DNA from: a virus
Direction: 5' to 3' (one strand)
Virus record (IMG/VR): IMGVR_UViG_3300045988_059541
Location: 1-37,033 of that record
DNA: 37,033 nucleotides
Below are positions 1 through 36,659 of the stretch, one piece after another (position 1 is the stretch's first letter; each line of letters opens with the position of its first letter). Both the position numbers and the translations under genes were made by a program. Under the pieces are notes generated by a model. The model was given only the letters and a program-made list of their open reading frames with translations, was not told where the DNA came from and searched no databases.

Positions 1-119
1 AATTCCATGTTTTATTCTCCTTTGTTAATAGCATTTTCTGCTACTTCTAGTCCTTTTGTTAAAACTGATGGTACATTGTCTCCGGCTTCCACGAAGTTCT
101 CAATGATGCTGCGTAACTC
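1..119. repeat. Terminal direct repeat copy 1 (assembly overlap or terminal redundancy)
   Basis: Nt 1-119 (aattccatgttttattctcc...gatgctgcgtaactc) are identical to nt 36915-37033. Confidence 0.95.
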
Positions 120-470
120 ATTAATAATAAGTGATGCCAAAGTGAACCATCCAACATATGTAGTGATACTCAAGTCAATATTGATAGTCTGCCCAATCTC
201 GATGAAGATTGCAGACGCTAAGAAAGCAACTAATACCATAAGCCAGTAGCCTAATTTCTTCCAAACTCCGCGTACTCCTTTTGCACTGTTTTCCTTTCCT
301 GTCAGTCTTGATTTTCTGATTCCTGTAATGTAATCAATGATGTTAAGTGTGAGAAACCCTACAAACAGTAGCCAATGAGTGCCGAATACTGCACTCAATA
401 CAGCCACGATAGTTCCTCCAACCGCGTTGATAGTATCCATATACTTTAATGATGTGTCATATAATTTCAT
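12..470 (-). CDS. Holin (phage_holin_4_1 / TcdE-like class)
   Basis: 152 aa with three hydrophobic helices (GGTIVAVLSAVFGTHWLLFVGFLTL, LGYWLMVLVAFLASAIFI, VGWFTLASLII). The LNIIDYITGI motif is typical of this holin family. It lies upstream of the endolysin across the circular junction. Confidence 0.8.
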   Translation of the reverse strand: MKLYDTSLKYMDTINAVGGTIVAVLSAVFGTHWLLFVGFLTLNIIDYITGIRKSRLTGKENSAKGVRGVWKKLGYWLMVLVAFLASAIFIEIGQTINIDLSITTYVGWFTLASLIINELRSIIENFVEAGDNVPSVLTKGLEVAENAINKGE

Positions 471-11691: not shown

Positions 11692-12011
11692 TGGTTCCCC
11701 TCCGGCTTCTTTTCGTGAACGATTCCTCCTGCACGAATCAGTCTCAGGTTGTTGAGAGTTGAGAGAATATCTTCATAAGTGGAAGACTGAAAAGTAGATG
11801 TGATGCCACCTTCTGAATGTGATGATTCTCCGACCATGCCCTCTCTGAAGTACATGGCACATGCTAGATCAGCCACACAGAAATCCATTGCAGTGATGTA
11901 TACAGTGCGGTTTGTATGTGCAAGAGCACGCTGTTTTGCCATTTCAACATAGATTTTTGCACGCCCCTGACTCGTTCCTGTTCTTTCAGCAACAATCTCA
12001 ACTAGATCCAT
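11688..12011 (-). CDS. Head-tail connector (gp6/gp15-like DNA packaging) protein
   Basis: 107 aa, the first connector-size gene after the capsid block. Confidence 0.45.
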   Translation of the reverse strand: MDLVEIVAERTGTSQGRAKIYVEMAKQRALAHTNRTVYITAMDFCVADLACAMYFREGMVGESSHSEGGITSTFQSSTYEDILSTLNNLRLIRAGGIVHEKKPEGNQ

Positions 12012-12014
12012 AGA

Positions 12015-12275
12015 TTACTCCTCCTGCATCTTAGTGAGAACTGCGACCAATTCCTTTTTAACAAGACTAGAATATCCGCTAACGCCCTTTTCCTTTGCAA
12101 TAGTCTTTAACTGGTCAACAGTCATATCGTTGAGGTCCGTCACTTCATTGTTTTCTACAGGAGTATCTTCGTCATTCTTCTTGTCTTCAATGATACGATA
12201 TCCCTGTTCGGTATAACGCTGAAGGTCATCCTCATGGATGACTCTTTCAACGTTGATTCTTTTTACAATGATCAT
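12015..12275 (-). CDS. Small protein with a Rho_N/SAP-like helix-extended-helix motif
   Basis: The C-terminal MTVDQLKTIAKEKGVSGYSSLVKKELVAVL matches the Rho termination factor N-terminal (HeH) pattern. It lies directly after the major capsid gene. Confidence 0.5.
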   Translation of the reverse strand: MIIVKRINVERVIHEDDLQRYTEQGYRIIEDKKNDEDTPVENNEVTDLNDMTVDQLKTIAKEKGVSGYSSLVKKELVAVLTKMQEE

Positions 12276-13192
12276 TATGCATCAGCTGAGACGTTAGCAA
12301 TGATTAGGTCAAGCATGTTGTCCTTTTCCCAGCAGTCATGATATCTTCTATAGTCAATCTGCCAAGCATTCGCATCCTGATTAGTATCAGGGTCAAATAC
12401 TCTTGTCTTGTCCTGTTTAGTAACACCGATAACACTATTAATTGGCGCCATTAAGAAGTTTACATCCTTAGCAGTTTCACCTTTTGTATATCCACCTTTG
12501 TCTTTTGTTGCTCCAGCATCAACCTTGATAGCTGAATACATTCTGTTCTTTGGTGTAGGAATGAATGTGATTTCATCAAGCTTATAGATATCTAATGTGA
12601 TATTTCCAATAGTTAATTTACCTGATGTAAGGTTGCTGTTTACCATCTTTTCCTTTAATAATCTTAAAGTATCATATGTAATATGACAGATGATATCGCC
12701 CTGATATCCTTTATCACGGATAGTATCCGCTGCCTTTTCTAATTCAGAAAGAATATTCTGTTCAGTCAATGCAGTTGTTAGGATGTTTGCTGATTTCTTT
12801 GCTGTAACATCAGAAACAACCTTAGAAATACGGTAAGCATCGACTTCAGGGGCAACATGTAAACGCTGGAATTCTCCCATGACAGTGCCAGCAGATGCAA
12901 CGAAATTGGTTTCGTTCACATCCATTGCATCAAGAAGGAACTTTCTTCCACGGTCCTGTGTCATTTTGAATGTTTCATATTCAAGAGTGACAGCACCCTG
13001 TTTATATCCTTCATCTCTGTTATAGTCTCCTAAGCCAACTAATGACATCTTAGGGATTTTTACCTCTGCACCACCGTCATACTTAATCTGTCCGGCATTG
13101 GCATCCATCCATGATGTAAGAGTGAGATGCTCCATCTGTTTATCTAATTCAGTCTGAAAAATAGTTGAATACTGTAATGTGTTAATTGCCAT
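12275..13192 (-). CDS. Major capsid protein
   Basis: 305 aa, following the scaffold gene. It has a strong RBS and the size and position of an HK97-fold capsid protein. Confidence 0.8.
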   Translation of the reverse strand: MAINTLQYSTIFQTELDKQMEHLTLTSWMDANAGQIKYDGGAEVKIPKMSLVGLGDYNRDEGYKQGAVTLEYETFKMTQDRGRKFLLDAMDVNETNFVASAGTVMGEFQRLHVAPEVDAYRISKVVSDVTAKKSANILTTALTEQNILSELEKAADTIRDKGYQGDIICHITYDTLRLLKEKMVNSNLTSGKLTIGNITLDIYKLDEITFIPTPKNRMYSAIKVDAGATKDKGGYTKGETAKDVNFLMAPINSVIGVTKQDKTRVFDPDTNQDANAWQIDYRRYHDCWEKDNMLDLIIANVSADA

Positions 13193-13208
13193 GTTCTATA
13201 CCTCTTTT

Positions 13209-13796
13209 CTAAAATTTAAGTGCATTCGCGAATGCCTTTCTTGCATTCTCTTCTTCAGCAGTCAATACATTGTTTTTTGCCTTGTCTAAAGGTGCTTTCC
13301 CTTTTAATCGTTCATCAACAGACTGCTGAACTGCTCCCTTGAATGCTTTAGAGAGTCTTTTGACAGATTCATTTACGGAATCAGCATCAGTGTAGTCAAT
13401 GAAATCAGCCATGTCTGCTGGAACTCCTGCAGCATTAAGCTGTTCCTTGGCAACTGCAGTCAGTTCTCTACGAGTAATTGCTGCTTCTCTATTGTCAAGT
13501 TCTTCTTTTCTCTTGTCTTCCTCATACTGCTTCTTTTCATCATCTGTCATCTTTTGAAGCCTTTCGGCTTCCGTATGATCCTTATCCCACTTCTTTCTTG
13601 CTCGGGCAAGTCTCTTCTGGACGATTCTGTCCACATCGTCTTCTGTGAGGGTTGTTACTTTGCCTTTATCTTCTTCCGGTTCACCTGACTGCGCATTATC
13701 GGGATTCCCTTCATCGCCTTTATCTTCTTCCCCCTCTTCCCCTTCTTCCGCAAAAAGCTGAAGGTTCAAAGGCATCATATTCTTAATGTATTCCAT
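13209..13796 (-). CDS. Capsid scaffolding protein (DUF4355-like)
   Basis: N-terminal LNLQLFAEE motif, a highly charged coiled-coil composition, and a position just upstream of the capsid gene. Confidence 0.75.
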   Translation of the reverse strand: MEYIKNMMPLNLQLFAEEGEEGEEDKGDEGNPDNAQSGEPEEDKGKVTTLTEDDVDRIVQKRLARARKKWDKDHTEAERLQKMTDDEKKQYEEDKRKEELDNREAAITRRELTAVAKEQLNAAGVPADMADFIDYTDADSVNESVKRLSKAFKGAVQQSVDERLKGKAPLDKAKNNVLTAEEENARKAFANALKF

Positions 13797-13894
13797 AACT
13801 TAATTCCTCCGTTTATAGTCCGTATGACTGTTATATCCATGCACCTTTTAATGTCATATGCACGTTATGGACAGACAGAAAAAAAAGAAGAACA

Positions 13895-14113
13895 TCAATC
13901 GCTCTTCTGTCTGCTTCTGTATTTCATCAATGCTTTAGGTTTTCTTTCCTTGGGAGGCGGACAGTACTCTTCATATGTCTCGTGTGAGAGTTTTCCGCAT
14001 ATCATACACATATATGTCACCTTCTTAACAATGACGTGCCTACGGCTGTCAAAATGATTTTTACAGTCATACTCAAAGTACTGATGATGATGTGGTTTCA
14101 ATCCTTCAGCCAT
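13895..14113 (-). CDS. Small Cys/His-rich (zinc-ribbon-like) protein
   Basis: 72 aa with CKNH...CMICGK...YC and a good RBS (AAAGGAGAA). Confidence 0.4.
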   Translation of the reverse strand: MAEGLKPHHHQYFEYDCKNHFDSRRHVIVKKVTYMCMICGKLSHETYEEYCPPPKERKPKALMKYRSRQKSD

Positions 14114-14140
14114 ATGGTTCTCCTTTCTTGAAATTGGGCA

Positions 14141-14165
14141 AAATAAAAACCGACTAGATAGTCGG
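14141..14165 (-). terminator. Putative intrinsic terminator (minus orientation)
   Basis: The minus strand reads CCGACT-atct-AGTCGG followed by TTTTTATTTT, immediately after the stop of the 14167..14508 gene. Confidence 0.45.
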
Positions 14166-14166
14166 C

Positions 14167-14508
14167 TTATACGAACGGTAATATGTCTTTCAAGTCTTTC
14201 ATAAATCGCTTGGCTTTTTCAATAGTTGAATTATCAGTAAGGTATTCTATGCCTTTTGGTGTAATCTCACATTTATCAAGGTTGTATATATCTATGTTTT
14301 CATCTATATCCTGGTCAATTACTATCCCACTGATATATCCATCATTCAACAGATTCACAATGACATAAGTCCAGTACTTTCTGTTGATCTGCAGATATTT
14401 ACTGTCATGTCTTATGAGTGATGCATCAATATCCTTCCCTTGCTTTAGCTGCATATACAGGTAGGATAGAATCTGATAAACAATTACATGATAATCATCT
14501 CTTGCCAT
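14167..14508 (-). CDS. YjcQ-like winged-helix protein
   Basis: 113 aa. The N-terminal YQILSYLY and C-terminal ITPKGIEYLTDNS...KAK pattern resembles the YjcQ family of the B. subtilis skin element. Confidence 0.45.
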   Translation of the reverse strand: MARDDYHVIVYQILSYLYMQLKQGKDIDASLIRHDSKYLQINRKYWTYVIVNLLNDGYISGIVIDQDIDENIDIYNLDKCEITPKGIEYLTDNSTIEKAKRFMKDLKDILPFV

Positions 14509-14514
14509 ATTTCA

Positions 14515-14874
14515 TTATTCCTTTTTATTCATTTCGTCTCTAAAGGCATCTTCATAATCAAGTTTGCCTGAATTAAGTACAAAATCTCTATCACGCTTCA
14601 TTTCATCCAATTCTTCCTGTGTTTCAACGTGCACCCCTACAACAATCCTGTCTATGTTCTCATAAGTATGATAAAACATATAGTTTACTCCATCGTTAAG
14701 TGTAGGATATAATTCTGCTTCTATAGTTGCTAAAGCTAATGAAACACGCAAAGCAAACATCGGGTCACCTTGAAAAGAAGGCCCTAAGTCATCAAGATGG
14801 AACATCCCTCGTGATTGATCCCCGGTTTCATAATCCGTCCTAAAGTCATGTTTAAAATCAGAATATTCGCTCAT
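14515..14874 (-). CDS. Acidic 119-aa protein, candidate immunity partner of the MuF C-terminal domain
   Basis: Its ATG overlaps the MuF stop (ATGA at 14871-14874), which suggests translational coupling. No family was recognised. Confidence 0.35.
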   Translation of the reverse strand: MSEYSDFKHDFRTDYETGDQSRGMFHLDDLGPSFQGDPMFALRVSLALATIEAELYPTLNDGVNYMFYHTYENIDRIVVGVHVETQEELDEMKRDRDFVLNSGKLDYEDAFRDEMNKKE

Positions 14875-16661
14875 TTTTTCACCCTCTTTTTAATATTGTT
14901 TAATGCATTGGTTTTGTAATTTCTATAATCCCATAATTTGTTATTTTTCCCAGATACAACATTTATTTTGATGTTTGCATCTATAACTTCTTTCTTGTTT
15001 ACAAGTTCATTATAAACTGAATCACAGCTAAAACACATGCTTTTTTGAGATAAGATGAAAATTTCTTGATTTTTTAATTCTCCTTTTAAAATTTTGTCAT
15101 AAATATATTCAAAAAACTTATATTCTGTATCGACATCTCTAGAATATTCGCCCTCGTGTCCCTTATATGGAACTGTTTTTAAATGAGGCGTCAATCTGGC
15201 ATTATCAGGCGATAAAATTAATTTTGATTTTTCTCCTTTATAATTCAAATAATTAGAGTCAGATACTTTTGAAATTTGGCTTGAAGCAATATATATATCA
15301 TCACCAATTTTCATTGAAGCAACATTTCCTCTTCCTGCTTTGGTTGTCATATATTCGTCTTTTGCAGTAAGGGCTTCTTTATCTAGTTCTAGAATCGTTT
15401 CAGCATCGACTTTACCATAGTCTGTTTTATAACGATTCACTGTCCTGAATTTATACTTTAAATCATTCCACTGGCTCTTATTGCCATATTTTACTTCCTG
15501 AAACTTTTCTAATGAACCAGGAACTAACTTGCTTCCAAGAACATTGCAGTAATTTTGGTACTGAATCTTATCTCTAGAATAATTCTTAGCTGACTTCTCA
15601 GCAGTGTTGATTGCTTCAGCACCATGCTTTTCAACCATTCTCTGATACCACTCTTTATAAGTCTCATCTGCTGGAACTTTTATTTTTTTACCTGTAACAG
15701 GGTCTCTAGCAAATCTTTCTAGATTATGCATAGTTTCATCGTCAAGATTCATAATAGTCGTAGAACGACACCATGGGTGCATCGGAGGGGCGTTTACACC
15801 TATCTTCTTATCATTAACCCTGTATACACTTCCGTCCCTCTCACGGCAAATTTGGGACGTTCTAAGGTCTAGTGTTGCAACAAATCTATACTCCTCTATG
15901 CCGTAATCCCTGTAAGCCTGGAAGTGCGCTTCATTGTGAATGTATGATGATTCAGTTCTTACAAGTCTTCTAGCATTGTTTCTACCAGAAAGGAACTGTT
16001 CGTTGATTGAGTCGGTCATTTCCTTCTCTGTCTTTCCTGTAAGTGCTCCTATCATGAACTCCTCTTTTAGTGCATCGGCCACCTTCTGAGTATTGTTCCA
16101 TACTCTTTCGGAATAGTTCTGACCTGACCACTTCTTTTTCAGAATGGTTTCAAGAGCGCCTTCATCAATGGGACCTGTCTGAAGATCTAGGCCACTCATT
16201 CTTGCAGCTTCATATACTGCATGGTGATAACTGCTTTCATAGACCTGTCGCATTGTCTTCCCTATGGCATCTCTTTCTTTTGATGCAACCGCATTGATTA
16301 GCCTGTTTATTGACTTATCAATATCGTCAAGCCTCTTCATACGGTTCTTGTATGCTGGGGCTTCCAATTCTGCTAGCACCTCTCTTTTTTGGGCACCTGT
16401 CTTATTCTTGTATGCTTCAAGCAGTTTTTCGAAATTTCTGCTGTCAGCCTCTGAAAGAAGATTAATAGCCTCGTCTCTTGTTAGATGATGCTTTGAAGCG
16501 AATCTATTGAATATTCCCTCAATCTGCTTGGCAGTGTAGATTGCAGCCTTGCTATAGATTACGCTCAAATCTTTAGAGCAGTCCTCAGCTAACTGCATAT
16601 CCTTGTACATGTTCCTTGCTTCTCGCATCTCCCAGTACTTTATATTTTTGATGTTAGTCAT
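14871..16661 (-). CDS. Minor head protein (SPP1 gp7 / Mu F family) with an extra ~186-aa C-terminal domain (candidate MuF-type polymorphic toxin)
   Basis: MuF signature ATLDLRTSQICRERDG...NAPPMHPWCRST at aa 262-301. A conserved linker (YKEWY, DKIQYQNYCNVLG, SLEKFQEVKY) follows, then an additional domain at aa 411-596. Confidence 0.8.
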   Translation of the reverse strand: MTNIKNIKYWEMREARNMYKDMQLAEDCSKDLSVIYSKAAIYTAKQIEGIFNRFASKHHLTRDEAINLLSEADSRNFEKLLEAYKNKTGAQKREVLAELEAPAYKNRMKRLDDIDKSINRLINAVASKERDAIGKTMRQVYESSYHHAVYEAARMSGLDLQTGPIDEGALETILKKKWSGQNYSERVWNNTQKVADALKEEFMIGALTGKTEKEMTDSINEQFLSGRNNARRLVRTESSYIHNEAHFQAYRDYGIEEYRFVATLDLRTSQICRERDGSVYRVNDKKIGVNAPPMHPWCRSTTIMNLDDETMHNLERFARDPVTGKKIKVPADETYKEWYQRMVEKHGAEAINTAEKSAKNYSRDKIQYQNYCNVLGSKLVPGSLEKFQEVKYGNKSQWNDLKYKFRTVNRYKTDYGKVDAETILELDKEALTAKDEYMTTKAGRGNVASMKIGDDIYIASSQISKVSDSNYLNYKGEKSKLILSPDNARLTPHLKTVPYKGHEGEYSRDVDTEYKFFEYIYDKILKGELKNQEIFILSQKSMCFSCDSVYNELVNKKEVIDANIKINVVSGKNNKLWDYRNYKTNALNNIKKRVKK

Positions 16662-16673
16662 AACAGAACACTA

Positions 16674-18125
16674 TTATTCCTTGTCTTTGTCATCATCATT
16701 ATCATCTTCCTCATGATCATCTGTTTCTTCTTCATCTTCTGGAGGAGTATTCTGATTTTCGGTATCAAATAACTGCTTCTGTGTTTCAAGTGCTTCCTGT
16801 TTTTCTTTTTTGACTTCTTTCATTTCATCATCAACGTTTGAAACAAAGTCAAGGAGTGCAAGAAGTGTCTTAGTTGATACAACACCTTTAAGGTTCGCAA
16901 TGATCTGTGATAATTCAAGACGGTTCTGTGGGAGTCCTCTTGTAAATACAGGCTCAATCATTGACTGATCAGCAGCAATCGCCTTTAGATTGAGGTAAGT
17001 ACAGAACATTCTTATACGCTTCTTAAGCCCTTTCTTGTAATATCTTTCTTTTGTCTTGGTGAGGGTCTCAAGGGCTAGAAGCTTATATTGAATGGCAATG
17101 CCTGAACTGTTGCCAGCAAAGTTTTCATCTGTCAGATTAGGAACATGAGAAAGTGAATAGATATCTTCCTTTATTGAGCGCTTGAGTGTTTCCACAGCAT
17201 TCTCGTCAAATGTTCTAGTCAGATATTCAGAGCGTGCATCAGCAGGAAGTTCCATAACACCATTCTTACGGATAGCCTGGAGCGCTTTTGTTGCTTCTTC
17301 ATCGTCATCACCTAAAAGAGCACCATAGACAACAAGCACTGCGTCAATGAACTGCTCCTTATCGTTGATTCTGTCAGAGCATAATGTATTGTATGCATCA
17401 ATCAGAGAAATCTGCTGTTCATAGTCTCCAATGCAGTCCATGTTGTTTCTATACTCAATGATAGGGTCCTCACCTAAGAAATGTGGGTAAGGCTCACCTA
17501 GTTCTGAAAACTCGCCTTTTTCGAATTCTTCATTGCATGTGATTCCCATTCTTGTGACATAGTTCTCAGTTGTTACTGTTGCGATGATATTGAACCTGTC
17601 AGTAGAATCATCTTTTTCAATCGAATAATAAACGCTGAATAGTTCATGCTGCTCAATTGAGGCATCGAAAACCTTGAATGTTGACAATGGGTCAAGTGTC
17701 TTGGTCATCAGCTTGCTTTCATGCTCACATAAGTAAACATACTCATAAGCGACACCAGCACGTGACATATTGATAGCATTGCATGAATCTGTATCATCTG
17801 TTTCAGCATCAACGAAAGCACCTGTCAGCTTGTCAATATTGCCGTCTTCTGTATTCTTCTTGAATGTGATGGGGTTTGAAAGAAAATAGCCCGTTGCTGT
17901 ATCTGATATATCTTTAGCATGATTTACCATGATCTTATTGTTCGGCTGGTTCTTGAACTTCTTTTCCCTGTTCATGATGGCATGCTTACCAAAGTAATAG
18001 CCGACATTCTTCAATATCTCAGGAGCACGAATACTATAATGCTTACTAATGAGACGAAGTATCATGCTTCTGTCTATGTTTGTCTCGTCGAATTTTTCTC
18101 GTGGAATCGTGAAAGTATAATACAT
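16674..18125 (-). CDS. Portal protein (SPP1 gp6-like)
   Basis: 483 aa, between TerL and MuF. The N-terminal pattern NNKIMVNHAKDISDTATGYFLSNPI is typical of this family, and the C-terminal tail is acidic. Confidence 0.85.
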   Translation of the reverse strand: MYYTFTIPREKFDETNIDRSMILRLISKHYSIRAPEILKNVGYYFGKHAIMNREKKFKNQPNNKIMVNHAKDISDTATGYFLSNPITFKKNTEDGNIDKLTGAFVDAETDDTDSCNAINMSRAGVAYEYVYLCEHESKLMTKTLDPLSTFKVFDASIEQHELFSVYYSIEKDDSTDRFNIIATVTTENYVTRMGITCNEEFEKGEFSELGEPYPHFLGEDPIIEYRNNMDCIGDYEQQISLIDAYNTLCSDRINDKEQFIDAVLVVYGALLGDDDEEATKALQAIRKNGVMELPADARSEYLTRTFDENAVETLKRSIKEDIYSLSHVPNLTDENFAGNSSGIAIQYKLLALETLTKTKERYYKKGLKKRIRMFCTYLNLKAIAADQSMIEPVFTRGLPQNRLELSQIIANLKGVVSTKTLLALLDFVSNVDDEMKEVKKEKQEALETQKQLFDTENQNTPPEDEEETDDHEEDDNDDDKDKE

Positions 18126-18128
18126 CTT

Positions 18129-19403
18129 TTAAAATCTCCTCTTTCCTGCTCTTGCCTTCTTCATAAGGATTTCATTTTCTATAGCATATCTAACCGCATC
18201 TATAGTGTGGTTGTTTCTGTCGGGGAAGTCCCCTCTAAGGTTGCCGTCTCTATCCATTTCAATTTCATAGTCATTGAATTCACGTGCAGCATTGGGGCAT
18301 CTAACAGGATCTATAATTATCTTATCTAGGTCCTGAAGGAACTTTATTCCATTGTCTACACTGTCAGCGCCTTTCTTTGCACCGATGATATTGAGACCTA
18401 ATAACTTGAATTCATTAATAGTTCTTGGTTCGGCCGAATCAGCAGTGACTAGCTTATTGAGTGGGTTAATCTCTTTTATGAGTTTCACGGCCTTGGCATT
18501 TGATAGTCTAGTTCCATATACTTCACCAAAAATAAAAAGACGCCTGCGCGTCTTGTCATAGTTTGCTTTGACATATGCTAATGGGTCACCAGCATAACCA
18601 AAGTCCAATCCGTTTTTTAATCTATCGAATACCTGTATTTCCTCGTCGGTTATCTCACGTATATCAAGGTTTGTGAAAACCTCACTACCTGTACCGGTTA
18701 CCTCTCCCAAATAGTCATGCTTATACTTATCAGGCTTTGTCTCCTTCATGTGGTTGGCTTCAATTAGAAACTGCTCCCCAAGCCACTGAGGTGGTGCCTG
18801 TAAGTAAGTTGTGTGAGAGACATATGTATCATCCCTTTTTACTAGAACTTGCCTATTGCACCAATTACGTTGTGATTCAGGAGGGTTGAAAGAATAAAAG
18901 ACACAATACTCATGTCCACCACGTAAAAGAGACTGATTGATATTGGTTATCTTGTCATAGGTCTCAAATTCGTCACATTCTTCATACCATACGTATTTAA
19001 CATAGCCGACAAACACCTTGATAGATTTCAACTTCTTAGGATTGTCAGCACCTTTGAATATTATCTGTTGTCCTGTCGGTCTGTATGTCATCTGTAACTT
19101 AGATTCAGGTATGTCCCAATCTTCTTCAGCCTTCAGCATGAATATGCCCCACTTAATCTGTTCATAGACTGAACCCCTTAAAGTGTCCTTTACACGTCTG
19201 ATAACAACGGCATTACTCATTACACCACGCTTCGCATCTCTCATAATCCCTAAAGGAATCTCTGTGCCAATGAAAGAAGATTTTAAAGAACCACGTCCAC
19301 CTTTAAGCCAGTAGTGTGTATATGCATTAGTCTTAACATATTTATGAAGATCATAGAACGCTGGGCCTATAATGTCAGAAAGCTTTGCTTTATTCGATGT
19401 CAT
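18129..19403 (-). CDS. terL: Terminase large subunit (PBSX/Terminase_3-like)
   Basis: Walker A-like motif LKGGRGSLKSS, 424 aa, overlapping the TerS stop. Confidence 0.9.
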   Translation of the reverse strand: MTSNKAKLSDIIGPAFYDLHKYVKTNAYTHYWLKGGRGSLKSSFIGTEIPLGIMRDAKRGVMSNAVVIRRVKDTLRGSVYEQIKWGIFMLKAEEDWDIPESKLQMTYRPTGQQIIFKGADNPKKLKSIKVFVGYVKYVWYEECDEFETYDKITNINQSLLRGGHEYCVFYSFNPPESQRNWCNRQVLVKRDDTYVSHTTYLQAPPQWLGEQFLIEANHMKETKPDKYKHDYLGEVTGTGSEVFTNLDIREITDEEIQVFDRLKNGLDFGYAGDPLAYVKANYDKTRRRLFIFGEVYGTRLSNAKAVKLIKEINPLNKLVTADSAEPRTINEFKLLGLNIIGAKKGADSVDNGIKFLQDLDKIIIDPVRCPNAAREFNDYEIEMDRDGNLRGDFPDRNNHTIDAVRYAIENEILMKKARAGKRRF

Positions 19404-19764
19404 CTATAATTACTATCTGTCCATTTGACTTGATATCAAGACTGCTGCCAGGCTTATTGCCACTCAAGTCTCTAATGAATTCCGCTGCCTTAGTGTCGCC
19501 TTTCATCGCCTTTTGAACCTGTTTAATGAGTATTGCATCCTGTACAGTCACATTCTTGCCATTCAATGCAGCAAAGTTCTTTATTGTGTCCACATCGGCT
19601 ATCTTACCGGATTTAAGAGACATGGAAAGAAGCGATGCAAGATTATCTTTCATTGCCTTCTTTTCTCTTCTTGCCTTGACAGATGCAAGTCCGCCTTTTC
19701 GGCCGTTCTCTCTTCTTTCTTCTGGTGTCATGTTTGCGAACTCACTTTTTGCCATTATCATCAC
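19390..19764 (-). CDS. terS: Terminase small subunit
   Basis: ~120 aa with a basic N-terminus (RRENGRKGGLASVKARREKK), directly upstream of and overlapping TerL. The real start is probably the third ATG (19755), after GGGGTGA. Confidence 0.6.
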   Translation of the reverse strand: MMIMAKSEFANMTPEERRENGRKGGLASVKARREKKAMKDNLASLLSMSLKSGKIADVDTIKNFAALNGKNVTVQDAILIKQVQKAMKGDTKAAEFIRDLSGNKPGSSLDIKSNGQIVIIDDIE

Positions 19765-19780
19765 CCCTTTATAAACACTA

Positions 19781-19813
19781 AAAAAAGAGCTAAGCGATTA
19801 TGTTTAGCTCTTT
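19781..19813 (-). terminator. Intrinsic terminator (minus orientation, weaker in plus)
   Basis: AAAGAGCTAA (19784-93) pairs perfectly with TTAGCTCTTT (19804-13) across a 10-nt loop. On the minus strand the stem runs into a 7-U tract. Confidence 0.6.
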
Positions 19814-19819
19814 TAAAAA

Positions 19820-20062
19820 CTAGAAATCAATTTCTTTTGCATCATCAAGTGTAATACCACACTGGTTCATATATCTCCAATAGTTCAACGCTTTGCCATC
19901 ACTTTTTCTGATAACGATAGGAATTCTTCCAGCATAAATATTATCTCGATCATTGAAAATATAACCACCTTCTGTTTCAAACGCTTCATTGATATTGGCG
20001 CCGAATTCTCCTAATGCCTCCAATGCAATTTCTTTTGCCTTTTCATAAGTAACCATCTTCAT
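19820..20062 (-). CDS. 80-aa protein, candidate immunity partner (YrhB/Imm35-like pattern)
   Basis: It starts ~10 nt after the toxin-like gene. The pattern VTYEKAKEIALEAL...EGGYIF...GRIPIVIRKSDGK recalls small alpha+beta immunity proteins (resemblance from memory only). Confidence 0.35.
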   Translation of the reverse strand: MKMVTYEKAKEIALEALGEFGANINEAFETEGGYIFNDRDNIYAGRIPIVIRKSDGKALNYWRYMNQCGITLDDAKEIDF

Positions 20063-20072
20063 TCTCCTTTAG

Positions 20073-20723
20073 TTATTTTAGTAATTTAACGCTTTCACGC
20101 GCTCGGTCAGAAATTCTCAAATTATCGGTACGAGTTAGATAGATATGTCCAGTTTCTCTTTTACTAAGCATTCCGAAAATATTCTTACTAGTATACTTAG
20201 TCCCTGTCTGTGCATCGACATACCTAATTTTTCCGTTTACGTTCTCACAGTTGAATACATGACCAGGAATCTGAATAATTCCTCGTGCGCCCTTTCCCCA
20301 GCTATGCATCTGTTTTTCAACTTTATTTTGTGCTGCCTTTTGAGTTGACGCGCCAACCTTAATAGGTTGAGCGTGTCTAAATGCTTTTTGCCATATACCT
20401 CTACCCTTAAGGGTACCATACGGTAATCTATCTCCTTTATAAGTAGGAAGAGCAGTTACATTATAACCTCGTCTTCTCAACTCATAAGCGATAACACAAC
20501 GCTGACAGTTTTCAGAGAATTCGGAATACTCATAGCTATGGTTAGGATTAACATTCTTCAATGCATTATCAATGCTATAAGGTTTTCCTTTCTTTCCGAT
20601 TGATTTTTTTAGTTCTCCAATACTTGGGATTCTATCGCCAATTCCAAAAGGTGAGAATTTTTCCTTTCCTTCTCCGCCTTTTGGTCTTTTATCACTGTCC
20701 CAACTAGAACCTCTACCACCCAT
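20073..20723 (-). CDS. Papain-fold toxin-like protein (Tox-PL1 / glutamine-deamidase-like Cys-His-Asp)
   Basis: 216 aa with a good RBS and a Gly-rich disordered N-terminus (MGGRGSSWDSDKRPKGGEGK). Motifs are NPNHSYEYSEFSENC73QRCVIAYELRRRGYNV, then PGH155VFNCENVNGKIRYVD170AQTG. Confidence 0.5.
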   Translation of the reverse strand: MGGRGSSWDSDKRPKGGEGKEKFSPFGIGDRIPSIGELKKSIGKKGKPYSIDNALKNVNPNHSYEYSEFSENCQRCVIAYELRRRGYNVTALPTYKGDRLPYGTLKGRGIWQKAFRHAQPIKVGASTQKAAQNKVEKQMHSWGKGARGIIQIPGHVFNCENVNGKIRYVDAQTGTKYTSKNIFGMLSKRETGHIYLTRTDNLRISDRARESVKLLK

Positions 20724-20751: not shown

Positions 20752-21801
20752 TTATATATTTTTTAAGTTTTTCATTTTTTCTGTCACATGATTGTCATAG
20801 TATTTCACATTAGCGCCCTTGAAGTCATAGCCAATGTCACCACCATAGACAAGCACATTCTTAGGCTTCAGCCTCTTCATGGCTTCATCCATGCCCTGTG
20901 TCCATATCTTTGTGGCTTCCTTGCTGCGCTTAACTCCAATAGTAGAAACTGAAATTGTACTGTTAGAAGGAATACCATCAAAACAAAAAGTAAATGTTTC
21001 TGGTTCAGCCCATGATACAGTAGGAATCACTCTAAGCCCTCTATCCTGATAGATCTGACCAATTAAACGGCTTCTGTATACATTCCATATTTTCATGGCC
21101 ATAGGCATATCCATGTAAAGAGAAAAGTCAGGAGTAAGAATACAGTCAAACTGCGCAAGCTTATCAACATACATCTGAGGAGATGCCCAAATTCTTTCAA
21201 ATTGATAGTCATCAATATAAAAATGAACACCTGATTCATATCTATTAGAATTCAATACATAATTGAAACCAACAAGATCATCCGGAACATAGTCAATTCT
21301 TTCAAGTGTAGGCATCTGATAGAATCCTATTGCTCTAAGTTCATCATATTCATCAAGGTTATATGCATTTCCTGTTCTTTCTCTCTCGTTTGACTTTTCG
21401 GAATCGTCTTCTTCAGGTTCTTCAAATTCAATTGACTCAAACCCAAATGAATCCATGTCTATATTGATAATGTCATCAAGTTCACCGCTTAGGATTTCAA
21501 AATCCCATTCAGCTTTCTCTGATACCTTGTTATCTGCTAGTCTAAATGCCTTAATCTGCTCGTCTGAGAGGTCATCGGCTACTATGCATGGAACTGTCTC
21601 AAGTCCTAGCTTTAGCGCTGCTTTAAACCTAGTATGACCGCATACGATGATATTATTCCTATCAACAACTATAGGAACTTTAAAACCAAACTCCTTGATG
21701 CTGTTCATCACCATTGGAACGGCTTCATCATTCCTTCTAGGATTGCGACTATAAGGAATTAGATCAGCAATAGGCTTCTGCGTTATCTTGATGTCATTCA
21801 T
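20752..21801 (-). CDS. ParB-like N-terminal (nuclease/CTPase-fold) domain fused to a DUF4417-like domain
   Basis: The N-terminal IADLIPYSRNPRRNDEAVPMVMNSIKEFGFKVPIVVD...CGHTRFKAA matches the ParB/Srx pattern. The C-terminal half (FYIDDYQFERIW...) resembles DUF4417. Confidence 0.7.
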   Translation of the reverse strand: MNDIKITQKPIADLIPYSRNPRRNDEAVPMVMNSIKEFGFKVPIVVDRNNIIVCGHTRFKAALKLGLETVPCIVADDLSDEQIKAFRLADNKVSEKAEWDFEILSGELDDIINIDMDSFGFESIEFEEPEEDDSEKSNERERTGNAYNLDEYDELRAIGFYQMPTLERIDYVPDDLVGFNYVLNSNRYESGVHFYIDDYQFERIWASPQMYVDKLAQFDCILTPDFSLYMDMPMAMKIWNVYRSRLIGQIYQDRGLRVIPTVSWAEPETFTFCFDGIPSNSTISVSTIGVKRSKEATKIWTQGMDEAMKRLKPKNVLVYGGDIGYDFKGANVKYYDNHVTEKMKNLKNI

Positions 21802-32760: not shown

Positions 32761-32789
32761 TTGATTGGTATTTTTGCTAATTGTATAAT
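32761..32789 (+). promoter_or_regulatory. Repressor (maintenance-type) promoter
   Basis: TTGATT (32761-66), a 17-nt spacer, then TATAAT (32784-89). AGGAGGTGA and the ATG at 32817 follow. Confidence 0.55.
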
Positions 32790-32816
32790 ATAAGCAAGGT
32801 AGGAGGTGAAAATAAA

Positions 32817-33428
32817 ATGGATAAGAAGGAATATACAGTAGCTGAAAGAATAAAGCACGGCCTCGATTTGAGAGGAATGAGAGCGGCTGACCTTTCCAGA
32901 AAAACAGGACTTACAAAGTCAATCATTTCCCAATATATGAGTGGCAGAGCAGAGCCTAAGCCAGAAAATCTCTTTAAAATATCAAAAGCCCTAGACATTT
33001 GGCCAACTTGGCTTATGGGTTATGACGTTGAAATCAAACCTTTTAACTATGAAGCGGTCGGAAGAGATAAATTTGAATCACACAAAGCTTATGTATATGA
33101 TAAGATAAATGGCATCTATGCAGATGAAGACACAAACAGTTATCAAATGTTTATTATTAAGGATCAGTCGCTGAAAGGCCTAGGAATAGAAGAAAATGAC
33201 ATCATTTTCTATAAAGAAATAGGCTTTGTAAAAAATAATGAACTTGCAGTTATCAAAATCAATGATCAGTTGGCAGTAAGGAGATATGTTCATTATGATA
33301 TAGGTCTCACAGTATTCAGAGCAGAAAACCCAACTTATAAAGATATTTCATACAAAGATAATGACATGAGTATTAGCGTTCAAGTAGTTGGTAAAGTAAT
33401 GGCTTTTGAAAGAATTTTAGCCAAATAA
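32817..33428 (+). CDS. CI-like repressor (XRE HTH plus S24 LexA-like C-terminal domain)
   Basis: HTH pattern ERIKHGLDLRGMRAADLSRKTGLTKSIISQYMSGRAEP. The C-terminal beta domain carries KDQSL and VVGKV (a Ser/Lys dyad-like arrangement). The start is placed at M13 because the promoter lies inside the longer track ORF. Confidence 0.8.
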   Translation: MDKKEYTVAERIKHGLDLRGMRAADLSRKTGLTKSIISQYMSGRAEPKPENLFKISKALDIWPTWLMGYDVEIKPFNYEAVGRDKFESHKAYVYDKINGIYADEDTNSYQMFIIKDQSLKGLGIEENDIIFYKEIGFVKNNELAVIKINDQLAVRRYVHYDIGLTVFRAENPTYKDISYKDNDMSISVQVVGKVMAFERILAK

Positions 33429-33740: not shown

Positions 33741-34874
33741 ATGCCTAGAAACTCTAGATTTAGACGTAGACCAAATAATACAGGTACCGTGGTTAAATTA
33801 TCGGGTAAGAGAAGAAACCCCTTCTGTGCCCGTGTAATGAGCGATGAACGAGATATAATAACAGGCAAGAAGAAGCAGATATGCATTGGAACATTCTCAA
33901 CTCGTGAAGAAGCATTGAATGCCTTATCTATTTACTCATTAAAGAGATCAAGCAGCATAACAAATGAAGAAGCTAGAAACCTTGCCCCTGATCTGTTTGA
34001 AAAGATACAGGAAAAGACACAAAAGAGAGTGCCAACGTTTAAGGAAATATTTACTATCATAGACAATGAAACCTTCAGCAAGCGAACCGAAAAAGGACAT
34101 AAAAACATCCTAAATGCTTTTAGCCACCTTGATAGGCTGTCAAATATGCCTGTCAATATAATCACATTAAGAGATATGCAGAACATATTTGATGAAATGT
34201 GTAGTGGTGTAAGTGTGCAGAGAGATATGAAGTACATCTGTGTCAAAGTCTTCGAGTATGCAGTGATGCACAAATATATCAGTAGAGATGATGATTATTC
34301 TACTTATATAAAAATAAAGAACCTTCCTAAGTCAACAATGCATAAAGCCTTTACACTTGATGAAATAAAGAAACTCAAAAAACTAGATACTCCAGAAGCG
34401 CATGTGCTGCTTATTTATATCTATACAGGGTGTAGGCTTTCTGAACTCCTCTCACTTGATAGAAAACAGATACACATAGATGAGCCTTGCAATGATGATG
34501 GAGTAGAAAGAAAAATCAGTTATATCATTACCGGTTCTAAGACTGAAGCTGGAAGAAACAGAATCATTCCGATTCATGAAGGAATCAAGCAGTATGTCAT
34601 TGATGAACTAATCAAAAGGAAAGAAAGAATATTTGATTCCAAACGCACATGGTTTTACATGACTGTACTCTATGCCCTCAATGATCAGCTAGGCATGAAC
34701 CACAAGATGCATGATACAAGAGATACTTTTGCTTCTCTTTGTCAGCTTTACAATATTGATATTTATATACGCAAGAAGGTTCTTGGGCATAAGCTTAATG
34801 ATATCACCTTTGATATCTATACCAATGCCTCAAAAAATAAGTTGTGGACAGAGATAAATAAGATTAAATTTTGA
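33741..34874 (+). CDS. int: Tyrosine integrase (phage integrase family)
   Basis: Catalytic signature TGCRLSELLSL (Arg I), HDTRDTFAS (H-x-x-R), VLGH and DIYTN (Tyr). The N-terminus is a basic arm-binding-like domain. Confidence 0.9.
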   Translation: MPRNSRFRRRPNNTGTVVKLSGKRRNPFCARVMSDERDIITGKKKQICIGTFSTREEALNALSIYSLKRSSSITNEEARNLAPDLFEKIQEKTQKRVPTFKEIFTIIDNETFSKRTEKGHKNILNAFSHLDRLSNMPVNIITLRDMQNIFDEMCSGVSVQRDMKYICVKVFEYAVMHKYISRDDDYSTYIKIKNLPKSTMHKAFTLDEIKKLKKLDTPEAHVLLIYIYTGCRLSELLSLDRKQIHIDEPCNDDGVERKISYIITGSKTEAGRNRIIPIHEGIKQYVIDELIKRKERIFDSKRTWFYMTVLYALNDQLGMNHKMHDTRDTFASLCQLYNIDIYIRKKVLGHKLNDITFDIYTNASKNKLWTEINKIKF

Positions 34875-35864: not shown

Positions 35865-36659
35865 TTAGACTTTTTTCAAATACTTTCTCGCAACCCATCC
35901 ACTAGGAATCTTTGCCCAATCTCCATCGAATTGAGATACAGTGACACGAGTACCGTAATTAAGACATCCGTCCTTATCGTAATCGTGAGCCTTAGCGTTC
36001 TTAGTTAATTCCTCATATGTCTTTCTTCTACAGTTAGCCCCTGGTCCTGTTCTGACGCTTAAATCACTAGCAGTAATCATATAAGTACCTAAAGCATTAG
36101 ATGCATTGCTCTGTGGCTTAGGTGTAGGAGTTTCAACGTGTTCATTAACACTCTTATTTAAGATACCCTCTACAATTGCCTTTGCGCACTTGTCAGCGTT
36201 CCATTTCACTTTATCAATAGCGTTGTCAACAAAGCAGCACTCAACAAGTAGTGCTGGAGAATTAGTCTTTCTCAACACATATAACTTAGTAGATGTTTTA
36301 ACACCTCTGTTTCTAATGCCTAGAGTGTTAGAAATATTCTTGACGATTCTTTCAGCTTCATCTTTGGCTTTTGAGTTGTCGCTATAGACATATACCTCTG
36401 TACCTGTTCCGCCTCCAGCGTTGAGATGAATAGAGACATCTAAGTCAACCTTATGATCATTACACTTGTTTACAATTGCTTTTAGGTTAGAATTCTGGTC
36501 TTTTCCATTATCATCAGTACAGTCATATACTGTATGTCCGTTTGCTCTTAACAACTCAATGACTTTATTTTTAACTTTTCTGTCTTCATTGACTTCATCT
36601 AATAAACCACTTGCTCCGCGACATTTTAAACTATGTCCACCATGTACGTTAATAATCAT
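35865..36659 (-). CDS. Endolysin: N-acetylmuramoyl-L-alanine amidase (Amidase_3) with a C-terminal SH3b domain
   Basis: NVHGGHS...DLDVSIHLNAGGGTGTEVYVY...NRGVKTSTKLYVLRKTNSPALLVECCFVDN matches the Amidase_3 pattern. The C-terminal LSVRTGPG...GTRVTV...GDWAKIPSGWVARKYL is SH3b-like. Confidence 0.85.
   Translation of the reverse strand: MIINVHGGHSLKCRGASGLLDEVNEDRKVKNKVIELLRANGHTVYDCTDDNGKDQNSNLKAIVNKCNDHKVDLDVSIHLNAGGGTGTEVYVYSDNSKAKDEAERIVKNISNTLGIRNRGVKTSTKLYVLRKTNSPALLVECCFVDNAIDKVKWNADKCAKAIVEGILNKSVNEHVETPTPKPQSNASNALGTYMITASDLSVRTGPGANCRRKTYEELTKNAKAHDYDKDGCLNYGTRVTVSQFDGDWAKIPSGWVARKYLKKV

Follow-up and report, generated by a model that had tools for sequence, protein, structure and literature searches.

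A viral DNA stretch of 37,033 nucleotides (IMG/VR record IMGVR_UViG_3300045988_059541, positions 1 to 37,033; hereafter the window, meaning the whole stretch that was analyzed) encodes on its minus strand a 596-amino acid (aa) MuF/SPP1-gp7 head protein (14871..16661, from the list of open reading frames, ORFs), whose C-terminal domain matches the BURPS668_1122 family of nucleic-acid deaminases (PF14424). The gene is directly followed by an acidic 119-aa ORF (14515..14874, minus strand), which is a candidate cognate immunity protein and is referred to here as family A3. The analysis makes it probable that the locus is a MuF-type polymorphic toxin, composed of a carrier, a deaminase toxin and its cognate 119-aa immunity protein and swapped as a cassette. 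Since the pair is exchanged as one cassette among related phages, the locus can be placed as a clear, if ordinary, case within a phage toxin family that is already known. The locus had been singled out in an original prediction made from the sequence alone, whose ORF coordinates and sequence features were found to be as it described them.

Identification of the C-Terminal Deaminase Domain

The C-terminal toxin domain covers aa 402–596 and, together with the stop codon, spans 14871..15458 of the minus strand. A match to the PF14424 profile ("Toxin-deaminase, the BURPS668_1122 family of deaminases") was obtained for aa 446–569 with an E value of 2e-12 and a score of 47.9 bits, above the curated cut-off (gathering threshold) of 29.6 bits, and the alignment reaches profile positions 17–143 of 146. 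The BURPS668_1122 clade carries the signature RxxDxExK plus CxxCxS (Table 1 of Iyer 2011, PMC3239186), and both elements were observed here, with the helix-2 catalytic motif R508-D-V-D511-T-E513-Y-K515 (RxxDxExK) at 15117..15140 and the helix-3 zinc motif C543-F-S-C546-D-S548 (CxxCxS) at 15018..15035, each on the minus strand. Metal binding is predicted for D511, C543 and C546, and the role predicted for E513 is that of catalytic base or proton shuttle. Judged by this profile match and these motifs, the domain is a BURPS668_1122-family nucleic-acid deaminase. The original prediction had read the DxE and CxxC pattern as that of a deaminase, which is correct, while it found the Asp in the place of a zinc ligand odd and the domain impossible to assign and possibly new. 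Neither reservation holds, since the PF14424 score lies above the cut-off, the published signature is matched exactly, and DxE instead of the usual H/CxE is a hallmark that is stated explicitly for this clade (Iyer 2011, PMC3239186).

When 1.84 billion cluster representatives were searched exhaustively with HMMER, 95 related clusters were obtained, and 72 representatives were aligned, with PF14424 being matched by 71 of the 72 scanned. The columns of this alignment place the D511-T-E513 and C543-F-S-C546 motifs far from chance. E513 is kept in 71/72 representatives, K515 in 70/72 and R508 in 55/72, while C543, C546 and S545 are each kept in 71/72. The D511 column contains Asp in 68 representatives and Cys in the other 4, which is the substitution expected for a metal ligand. 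Where the matches to the 95 clusters are longer, the homology in most cases starts within the first three residues of the query (aa 402–404), so the extra domain that had been placed at aa 411–596 begins slightly earlier than was proposed. The ratio of nonsynonymous to synonymous substitution rates (dN/dS) of the domain ranges from 0.09 to 0.15, and the deaminase domain is under purifying selection.

A PD-(D/E)xK nuclease (P485-D486 ... E513-x-K515) had been offered as a second possible catalytic pattern, and it was rejected as a chance match with next to no probability of being right. All that speaks for it is the pattern match in this one sequence. P485 is conserved in 18/72 and D486 in 14/72 of the relatives, so the reading fails on the poor conservation of these two residues, and its E513 and K515 are part of the DxExK motif of the deaminase. 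In addition, no nuclease family was matched in Pfam, NCBIfam or PHROGs, and the structural matches given below are deaminases and not restriction-endonuclease-fold proteins.

The AlphaFold2 (AF2) model of the deaminase domain, obtained with a 31-sequence alignment, has a predicted local distance difference test (pLDDT) of 89.7 and a predicted template modelling score (pTM) of 0.88, and its elements follow the order strand-strand-insert-helix(DxE)-strand-helix(CxxC)-strand. The DxE lies at the N-terminus of model helix 111–124 and the CxxC at the start of model helix 143–153, with a strand separating the two helices. A long insert (domain residues ~60–110) lies between strands 46–51 and 54–59 and helix 111–124, and the pLDDT is lower there (65–71). 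A phmmer search of the C-terminal domain against PDB sequences gave no match at E values up to 10, and a Foldseek search of the model against PDB and BFVD gave nothing at E ≤ 0.001, so there is no close structural template. Among the top 50 PDB matches of Foldseek, which are weak, most are dCMP, guanine, cytidine, TadA, APOBEC or DYW deaminases, and the BFVD matches are similarly weak. The combination of AlphaFold and Foldseek, which had been suggested as a check on the domain, therefore delivered a confident model together with weak structural matches, nearly all of the top ones having the deaminase fold.

The 119-aa ORF and Its Pairing with the Deaminase

The 119-aa ORF starts within the stop codon of the MuF gene. 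At the junction, AAAAAATGAGCG, its ATG (14874..14872) overlaps the MuF TGA (14873..14871) as ATGA, a Shine-Dalgarno sequence, GAGGG (14886..14882), lies 7 nt upstream of this ATG, and the ORF is translationally coupled to the toxin gene. Identical copies of the protein in related loci have a computed isoelectric point (pI) of 4.4, which, with the junction, confirms the acidic, overlapping ORF noticed at the outset. Its dN/dS ranges from 0.04 to 0.09, and the ORF is under purifying selection. No match was found in Pfam (E up to 10), NCBIfam or PHROGs, and the 31 detectable homologues are all close, with 61–96% identity. As there is no family match, only close homologues and a poor structure model, the evidence on the role of this ORF is comparative.

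In a pairing survey, the ORF abutting the deaminase gene was classified in every fetched locus. An A3 homologue abuts the deaminase in 56/56 loci with deaminases 69–99% identical to the one in the window, and these A3 partners are 119–127 aa in length and have a pI of 4.1–4.6, their overlap with the toxin gene being 4 or 20 nt. In the 45 loci with deaminases 29–41% identical, the partner is instead a second acidic family, A4 (107–149 aa, pI 4.1–4.9), and no crossing of A3 and A4 partners between the close and the distant deaminases was observed. The possibility that A3 is a divergent relative of A4 was rejected, since phmmer gave no match between them and the hhalign probability is 6%, and the two families were therefore treated as unrelated. 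A4 has no Pfam match at E up to 10 and thus does not fit the Imm3 or Imm2 models; the candidate assignments of either A3 or A4 to Imm2, Imm3 or SUKH were rejected on the same Pfam search. Loci in which A4 follows distant MuF-deaminases come from phages of gut Clostridia (L008–L032 and L084–L112).

Both the pair and the A3 gene alone were also detected apart from the MuF gene. On a 51-kb contig that lacks MuF (L001), a free-standing deaminase and A3 pair is located next to an integrase, and this cassette keeps ~34 codons of the MuF linker upstream of its ATG; a linker remnant of this kind is typical of the orphan cassettes of polymorphic toxins. An A3 gene without a deaminase was found in L006 (4709..5360) and L007 (2800..3451), beside an AIPR abortive-infection gene. 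The lone A3 is preceded there by an overlapping, unrelated 100-aa acidic ORF and is adjoined by a transposase fragment, and the region may be a small multi-immunity or defence island. In a Clostridia metagenome-assembled genome (JAFWDJ010000011.1; L030, 2707..4713), two tandem ORFs of 190 and 203 aa, each consisting of a short MuF C-terminal fragment and a deaminase, are each followed by an A4-type ORF, which looks like an array of orphan toxin-immunity cassettes.

Cassette Exchange among Related Phages

The linker, the deaminase and the 119-aa ORF make up an exchangeable toxin-immunity cassette of ~1.1 kb (14511..15606, minus strand), which was delimited by blastn against seven related phages. 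The flanks on both sides, 19500..~15607 and 14510..12000, are 93–98% identical in these phages, with all the C-terminal types given below being represented, and the segment between them is replaced or absent. On the right, the breakpoint (14510/14511) is situated 4 nt past the stop codon with which the 119-aa ORF ends, while the left breakpoints fall at 15486–15613 of the window, which corresponds to the linker at about aa 350–392. From these positions, the unit of exchange comprises both the toxin domain and the 119-aa ORF, and the following YjcQ gene is outside it. A search for a recombination breakpoint after the linker had been suggested, and a breakpoint was found, located within the linker. 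From the alignment of variants, the linker or pre-toxin region (aa 354–401; 15459..15602, minus strand) is semi-conserved across the cassette types, with the common pattern AEKSAKNYSSDK..Y..LG..P.SL.EFQ.LKY..W..LK, after which the sequences diverge.

In 80 viral contigs, the N-terminal part of MuF (aa 1–347) is 93–99% identical to that of the window whatever the C-terminus, and it carries at least seven C-terminal types or none. The deaminase of the window, in a MuF protein of 596 aa with an A3 partner, was obtained from 21 loci, and a deaminase 36% identical to it, in a MuF of 585 aa with an A4 partner, from 4 loci. Ntox50 (PF15542, E 3.5e-23) was found in a MuF of 523 aa with a 70-aa partner ORF (6 loci). 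The remaining C-terminal types have no Pfam match and belong to MuF proteins of 526 aa (90-aa partner ORF; 20 loci), of 624–633 aa (no small ORF downstream; 14 loci), of 533 aa (71-aa partner ORF; 4 loci) and, as a second type of that length, of 585 aa (58-aa partner ORF; 3 loci). These four types, most of them with a small ORF of their own, are candidate unnamed toxin-immunity pairs. A MuF of 366 aa, found at 4 loci, has no extension and is directly followed by YjcQ. Alternative cassettes at the position equivalent to 14511..15606 can be seen in the IMG/VR contigs L113, L114, L127, L135 and L140. In 16 backbones with the same cassette version, the deaminase domain is 99–99.5% identical while the MuF N-terminal part is 93–97% identical, and this higher identity of the deaminase fits a recent spread of the cassette across backbones.

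The YjcQ-family ORF (113 aa; 14167..14508, minus strand; PF09639, E 7.5e-18; phrog_3675) was considered as a member of the module and rejected. It sits in the conserved flank outside the cassette, it directly follows the toxin-less 366-aa MuF in L165, and it is absent from the MuF-deaminase phage L004. A terminator-like hairpin (14168..14147) was observed after YjcQ and a second one (13886..13908) after the 72-aa ORF (phrog_30609), and finding terminators within a late head operon is somewhat surprising.

Evaluation of the Proposed Toxin and Immunity Roles

Several observations weigh against the interpretation of this locus as a MuF-type polymorphic toxin with a cognate immunity protein. No solved structure is close to the deaminase model, the best Foldseek match in PDB being weak (E 0.12, template modelling score 0.2–0.37). 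Q539 (15045..15047) precedes the first zinc Cys by four residues and stands in place of a Glu kept in 65/72 relatives, so that LSEKxMC becomes LSQKSMC in the deaminase subclade. The 119-aa ORF has no match to Imm2, Imm3 or SUKH, the immunity families of the clade (Pfam, E up to 10), and its AF2 model is poor, with a pLDDT of 51 from a shallow alignment of 17 sequences that are 68–96% identical. Lastly, a scan for promoters that could drive the immunity gene separately gave no more sites than shuffled controls.

The Q539 replacement, as well as the truncation of many clade members after helix 3 (Iyer 2011, PMC3239186), would agree with a C-terminal domain that is derived from a deaminase and is catalytically dead or purely structural, serving for decoration or DNA binding. 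We consider this highly improbable, as the four canonical catalytic and metal residues, together with K515 and S545, are intact and conserved across the clade, and as the low dN/dS of the domain and the tightly linked partner gene, which is kept everywhere and would be needless for an inert domain, both speak against it. Moreover, sister phages have the toxin-less 366-aa MuF, so the extension is not needed for head assembly.

A different role of the 119-aa protein, dedicated to the C-terminal domain as its chaperone, as an adaptor for assembly or packaging, or as a small structural protein, would be in line with its lack of homology to any known immunity family, with its poor structure model and with its strict linkage to the domain, which is equally expected of a dedicated chaperone. 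Such a role is very unlikely in view of the loci where the protein occurs without a MuF or capsid context, either with the deaminase (L001) or alone (L006/L007). It is also small, acidic and overlapping, as the immunity genes of polymorphic toxins generally are, and the other cassettes at the locus each bring their own unrelated small ORF.

The same parts might also serve another purpose, with the injected deaminase being an early-infection effector that works for the phage and not a weapon of the lysogen against competitors. Such an effector might bias the lysis-lysogeny decision, harm the nucleic acids of the host or of competing elements, or counter defence, and the 119-aa protein would only silence the enzyme in the producer. 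An influence on the lysogeny decision has been proposed as an alternative role (Jamet 2017, PMC5576092), and an immunity gene coupled to a late gene, with no separate promoter detected, fits the protection of the producer rather than of the lysogen. However, orphan immunity genes and free-standing cassettes are found in bacterial chromosomes outside head modules, and the allelic diversity at this one locus is extreme, both of which are hallmarks of inter-strain toxin-immunity conflict. We therefore regard a purely early-infection role as unlikely, though the effector and weapon roles are not mutually exclusive. The toxin and immunity pair put forward as a candidate by the original prediction is, for its part, well supported by comparison, through the co-variation of deaminase and partner, their joint swapping and the free-standing pair.

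MuF Carrier, Genome Context and Likely Host

The MuF/SPP1-gp7 head-morphogenesis core (aa 1–353; 15603..16661, minus strand; PF04233, TIGR01641 and phrog_115) is the conserved, non-swapped part of the protein and presumably its capsid-targeting module. PF04233 spans aa 200–303 (E 4e-17), and the 596-aa protein matches TIGR01641 with an E value of 3.6e-26 and phrog_115 (minor head protein) with an E value of 7e-96; the PF04233 and TIGR01641 matches bear out the MuF domain that had been expected in the N-terminal part. In IMG, the exact MuF protein carries the name "SPP1 gp7 family putative phage head morphogenesis protein". Its gene lies in the head and packaging module of a temperate tailed phage, where the minus-strand order is the large terminase TerL (18129..19403, minus strand), the portal (16674..18125, minus strand), the 596-aa MuF, the 119-aa ORF, the YjcQ-family ORF, the 72-aa ORF, the scaffold and the major capsid protein.

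By its gene content, the window looks like a complete temperate siphovirus genome. The phage is temperate, since it encodes a tyrosine integrase (33741..34874), an S24 repressor with a helix-turn-helix (HTH) motif (HTH/S24; 32781..33428) and a Bro/ANT antirepressor. A holin (12..470) is located at the start of the window and an amidase endolysin (Amidase_3/SH3; 35865..36659) near its end, with the integrase and the repressor at 32.8–34.9 kb between them, and the window probably represents a complete phage genome of ~37 kb, either circularly permuted or excised.

Under the accession MBD9189441.1, NCBI lists the exact 119-aa protein as "hypothetical protein [Catenibacterium mitsuokai]", and it is present on 419 contigs; Catenibacterium mitsuokai is the likely host. 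By the large terminase, the nearest cultured phages are Clostridium perfringens siphoviruses, with 47% identity, and a megablast search of window positions 12000–20000 against GenBank phages gave no match.

A second polymorphic-toxin-type domain was observed in the same phage. A 216-aa ORF (20073..20723, minus strand) matches PF15644 Gln_amidase, "Papain fold toxin 1, glutamine deamidase" (Tox-PL1), with an E value of 7.9e-11, and it is situated between a ParB_N+DUF4417 gene (20752..21801) and a probable small terminase ORF. This domain stands alone and is not fused to MuF; elsewhere, Tox-PL1 has been found fused to MuF (Zhang et al. 2012, PMC3482391).

Distribution and Comparison with Known Systems

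The fusion of MuF and deaminase is not unusual. Among the 72 aligned representatives, 33 match Phage_Mu_F and 15 match Phage_min_cap2, and the scans detected 25 loci in genomes of gut Clostridia/Bacillota and at least 80 IMG/VR contigs. The fusion is also present in the GenBank phages phiCT9441A (Clostridium tetani) and TVCOM_ph1 (Terrisporobacter), where it is annotated only as "minor head protein". In phiCT9441A (NC_029022.1), the portal is likewise followed by a MuF protein with a C-terminal PF14424-like domain (gp40), which is 38% identical in that domain and has a 110-aa hypothetical ORF 1 nt downstream. This is a phage of a cultured host, its deaminase clade is distant, and gp40 bears a head-protein annotation only.

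The MuF delivery class was defined by Zhang et al. 2012 (PMC3482391), and a small downstream ORF accompanies 89% of MuF toxins, whereas among short MuF proteins the share is 25% (Jamet et al. 2017, PMC5576092). The present system is like the MuF polymorphic toxins of these two studies in its N-terminal MuF/SPP1-gp7 domain, its gene position after the portal in the head module of a temperate phage, its variable C-terminal toxin domain on a conserved N-terminal part and its small ORF directly downstream. Neither "deaminase" nor PF14424 was found in the main text or the supplements searched of Jamet 2017 (PMC5576092). According to a 2024 paper (PMC11699363), the only characterised MuF toxins are Apk2, which are (p)ppApp synthetases, and now Bxa, which is an ADP-ribosyltransferase, and no experimentally characterised MuF-deaminase was found in the literature searched. 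Unlike in Apk2 and Bxa, the toxin here is assigned as a nucleic-acid deaminase, with one candidate immunity gene and no enzymatic "second immunity".

For the BURPS668_1122 clade, a "terminase based" delivery has been listed, and one deaminase toxin, C. perfringens AC5_0860, has been cited in a phage-packaging neighbourhood (Iyer 2011, PMC3239186). Members of PF14424 showed single-stranded DNA cytidine deaminase (C-to-U) activity in a base-editor reporter (preprint, bioRxiv 10.1101/2023.05.21.541555). The SCP1.201 clade is classified as sister to BURPS668_1122, sharing an insert and a polar residue after the catalytic Glu (Iyer 2011, PMC3239186). The domain described here is like the BURPS668_1122 clade (PMC3239186) in its hidden Markov model match, in both signatures and in its place as the C-terminal toxin of a polymorphic toxin. 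It is unlike the clade in that its partner is not Imm2, Imm3 or SUKH and that Q539 replaces the usual Glu, and it is unlike most of the relatives in that its subclade has a 4-residue insertion (EVID) after helix 3 and a longer insert separating strand 2 from helix 2.

DddA, of the SCP1.201 clade, and SsdA are interbacterial DNA deaminase toxins, each of which is neutralised by an adjacent small immunity protein. The present system follows the same logic, with a putatively toxic deaminase and an adjacent small candidate immunity protein, and differs from the type VI secretion of these toxins in that delivery here would, by analogy, proceed via the phage head. DddA was not among the top 50 Foldseek structural matches.

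Proposed Mechanism and Significance

In the mechanism that we propose, the MuF part would bring a small number of copies of the protein into the capsid, at the portal, from where, by analogy with SPP1 gp7, the protein would exit with the DNA on infection. The toxin would then enter the target cell together with the phage DNA, as has been proposed in the literature. The linker joins the MuF part to the PF14424 zinc deaminase, which would be toxic by damaging nucleic acid, with cytosine deamination in nucleic acid being the most likely activity. The 119-aa protein probably blocks the active site of the deaminase through direct binding, and during late gene expression it would thereby shield both the cell that produces the toxin and the phage DNA under replication. 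As toxin production coincides with the replication of phage DNA, one role of the immunity is probably the protection of progeny genomes. If expressed in lysogens, the immunity gene would also guard them from incoming toxin. The linker, the toxin and the immunity gene together make up the 1.1-kb cassette that recombines in and out of otherwise near-identical phages.

For the DxE-type clade there is neither a solved structure nor a near structural neighbour. It is also conceivable, though doubtful, that the deaminase acts on an unusual substrate or sequence context, such as double-stranded DNA, a specific tRNA or a modified base, and that the 119-aa protein is a new inhibitor fold. The primary role of the 119-aa protein could in that case be to prevent mutation of the phage's own replicating genome before packaging, and the cassettes at this one locus would then be ready-made deaminase-inhibitor pairs, e.g., for base editing.

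The polymorphic toxin described here opens no new category, as MuF polymorphic toxins and the PF14424 deaminase have already been described and the packaging delivery of the clade was flagged in 2011. Its value lies in being a clean and well-delimited example and a starting point for experiments on deaminase toxins delivered by phages and on the inhibitors cognate to them. The deaminase is a toxin class without experimental study in MuF toxins, the prophage that carries it here is an abundant one, its host being a human gut bacterium (probably Catenibacterium mitsuokai), and the candidate immunity protein belongs to an unannotated family. As the public labels read only "head morphogenesis protein" and "hypothetical protein", the annotation of these genes can be improved. 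The sister phages, with at least seven alternative cassettes at one locus, constitute a natural allelic series, through which the delivery of MuF toxins, the cognate specificity of immunity (A3 versus A4) and the target of a DxE-type deaminase may be tested.

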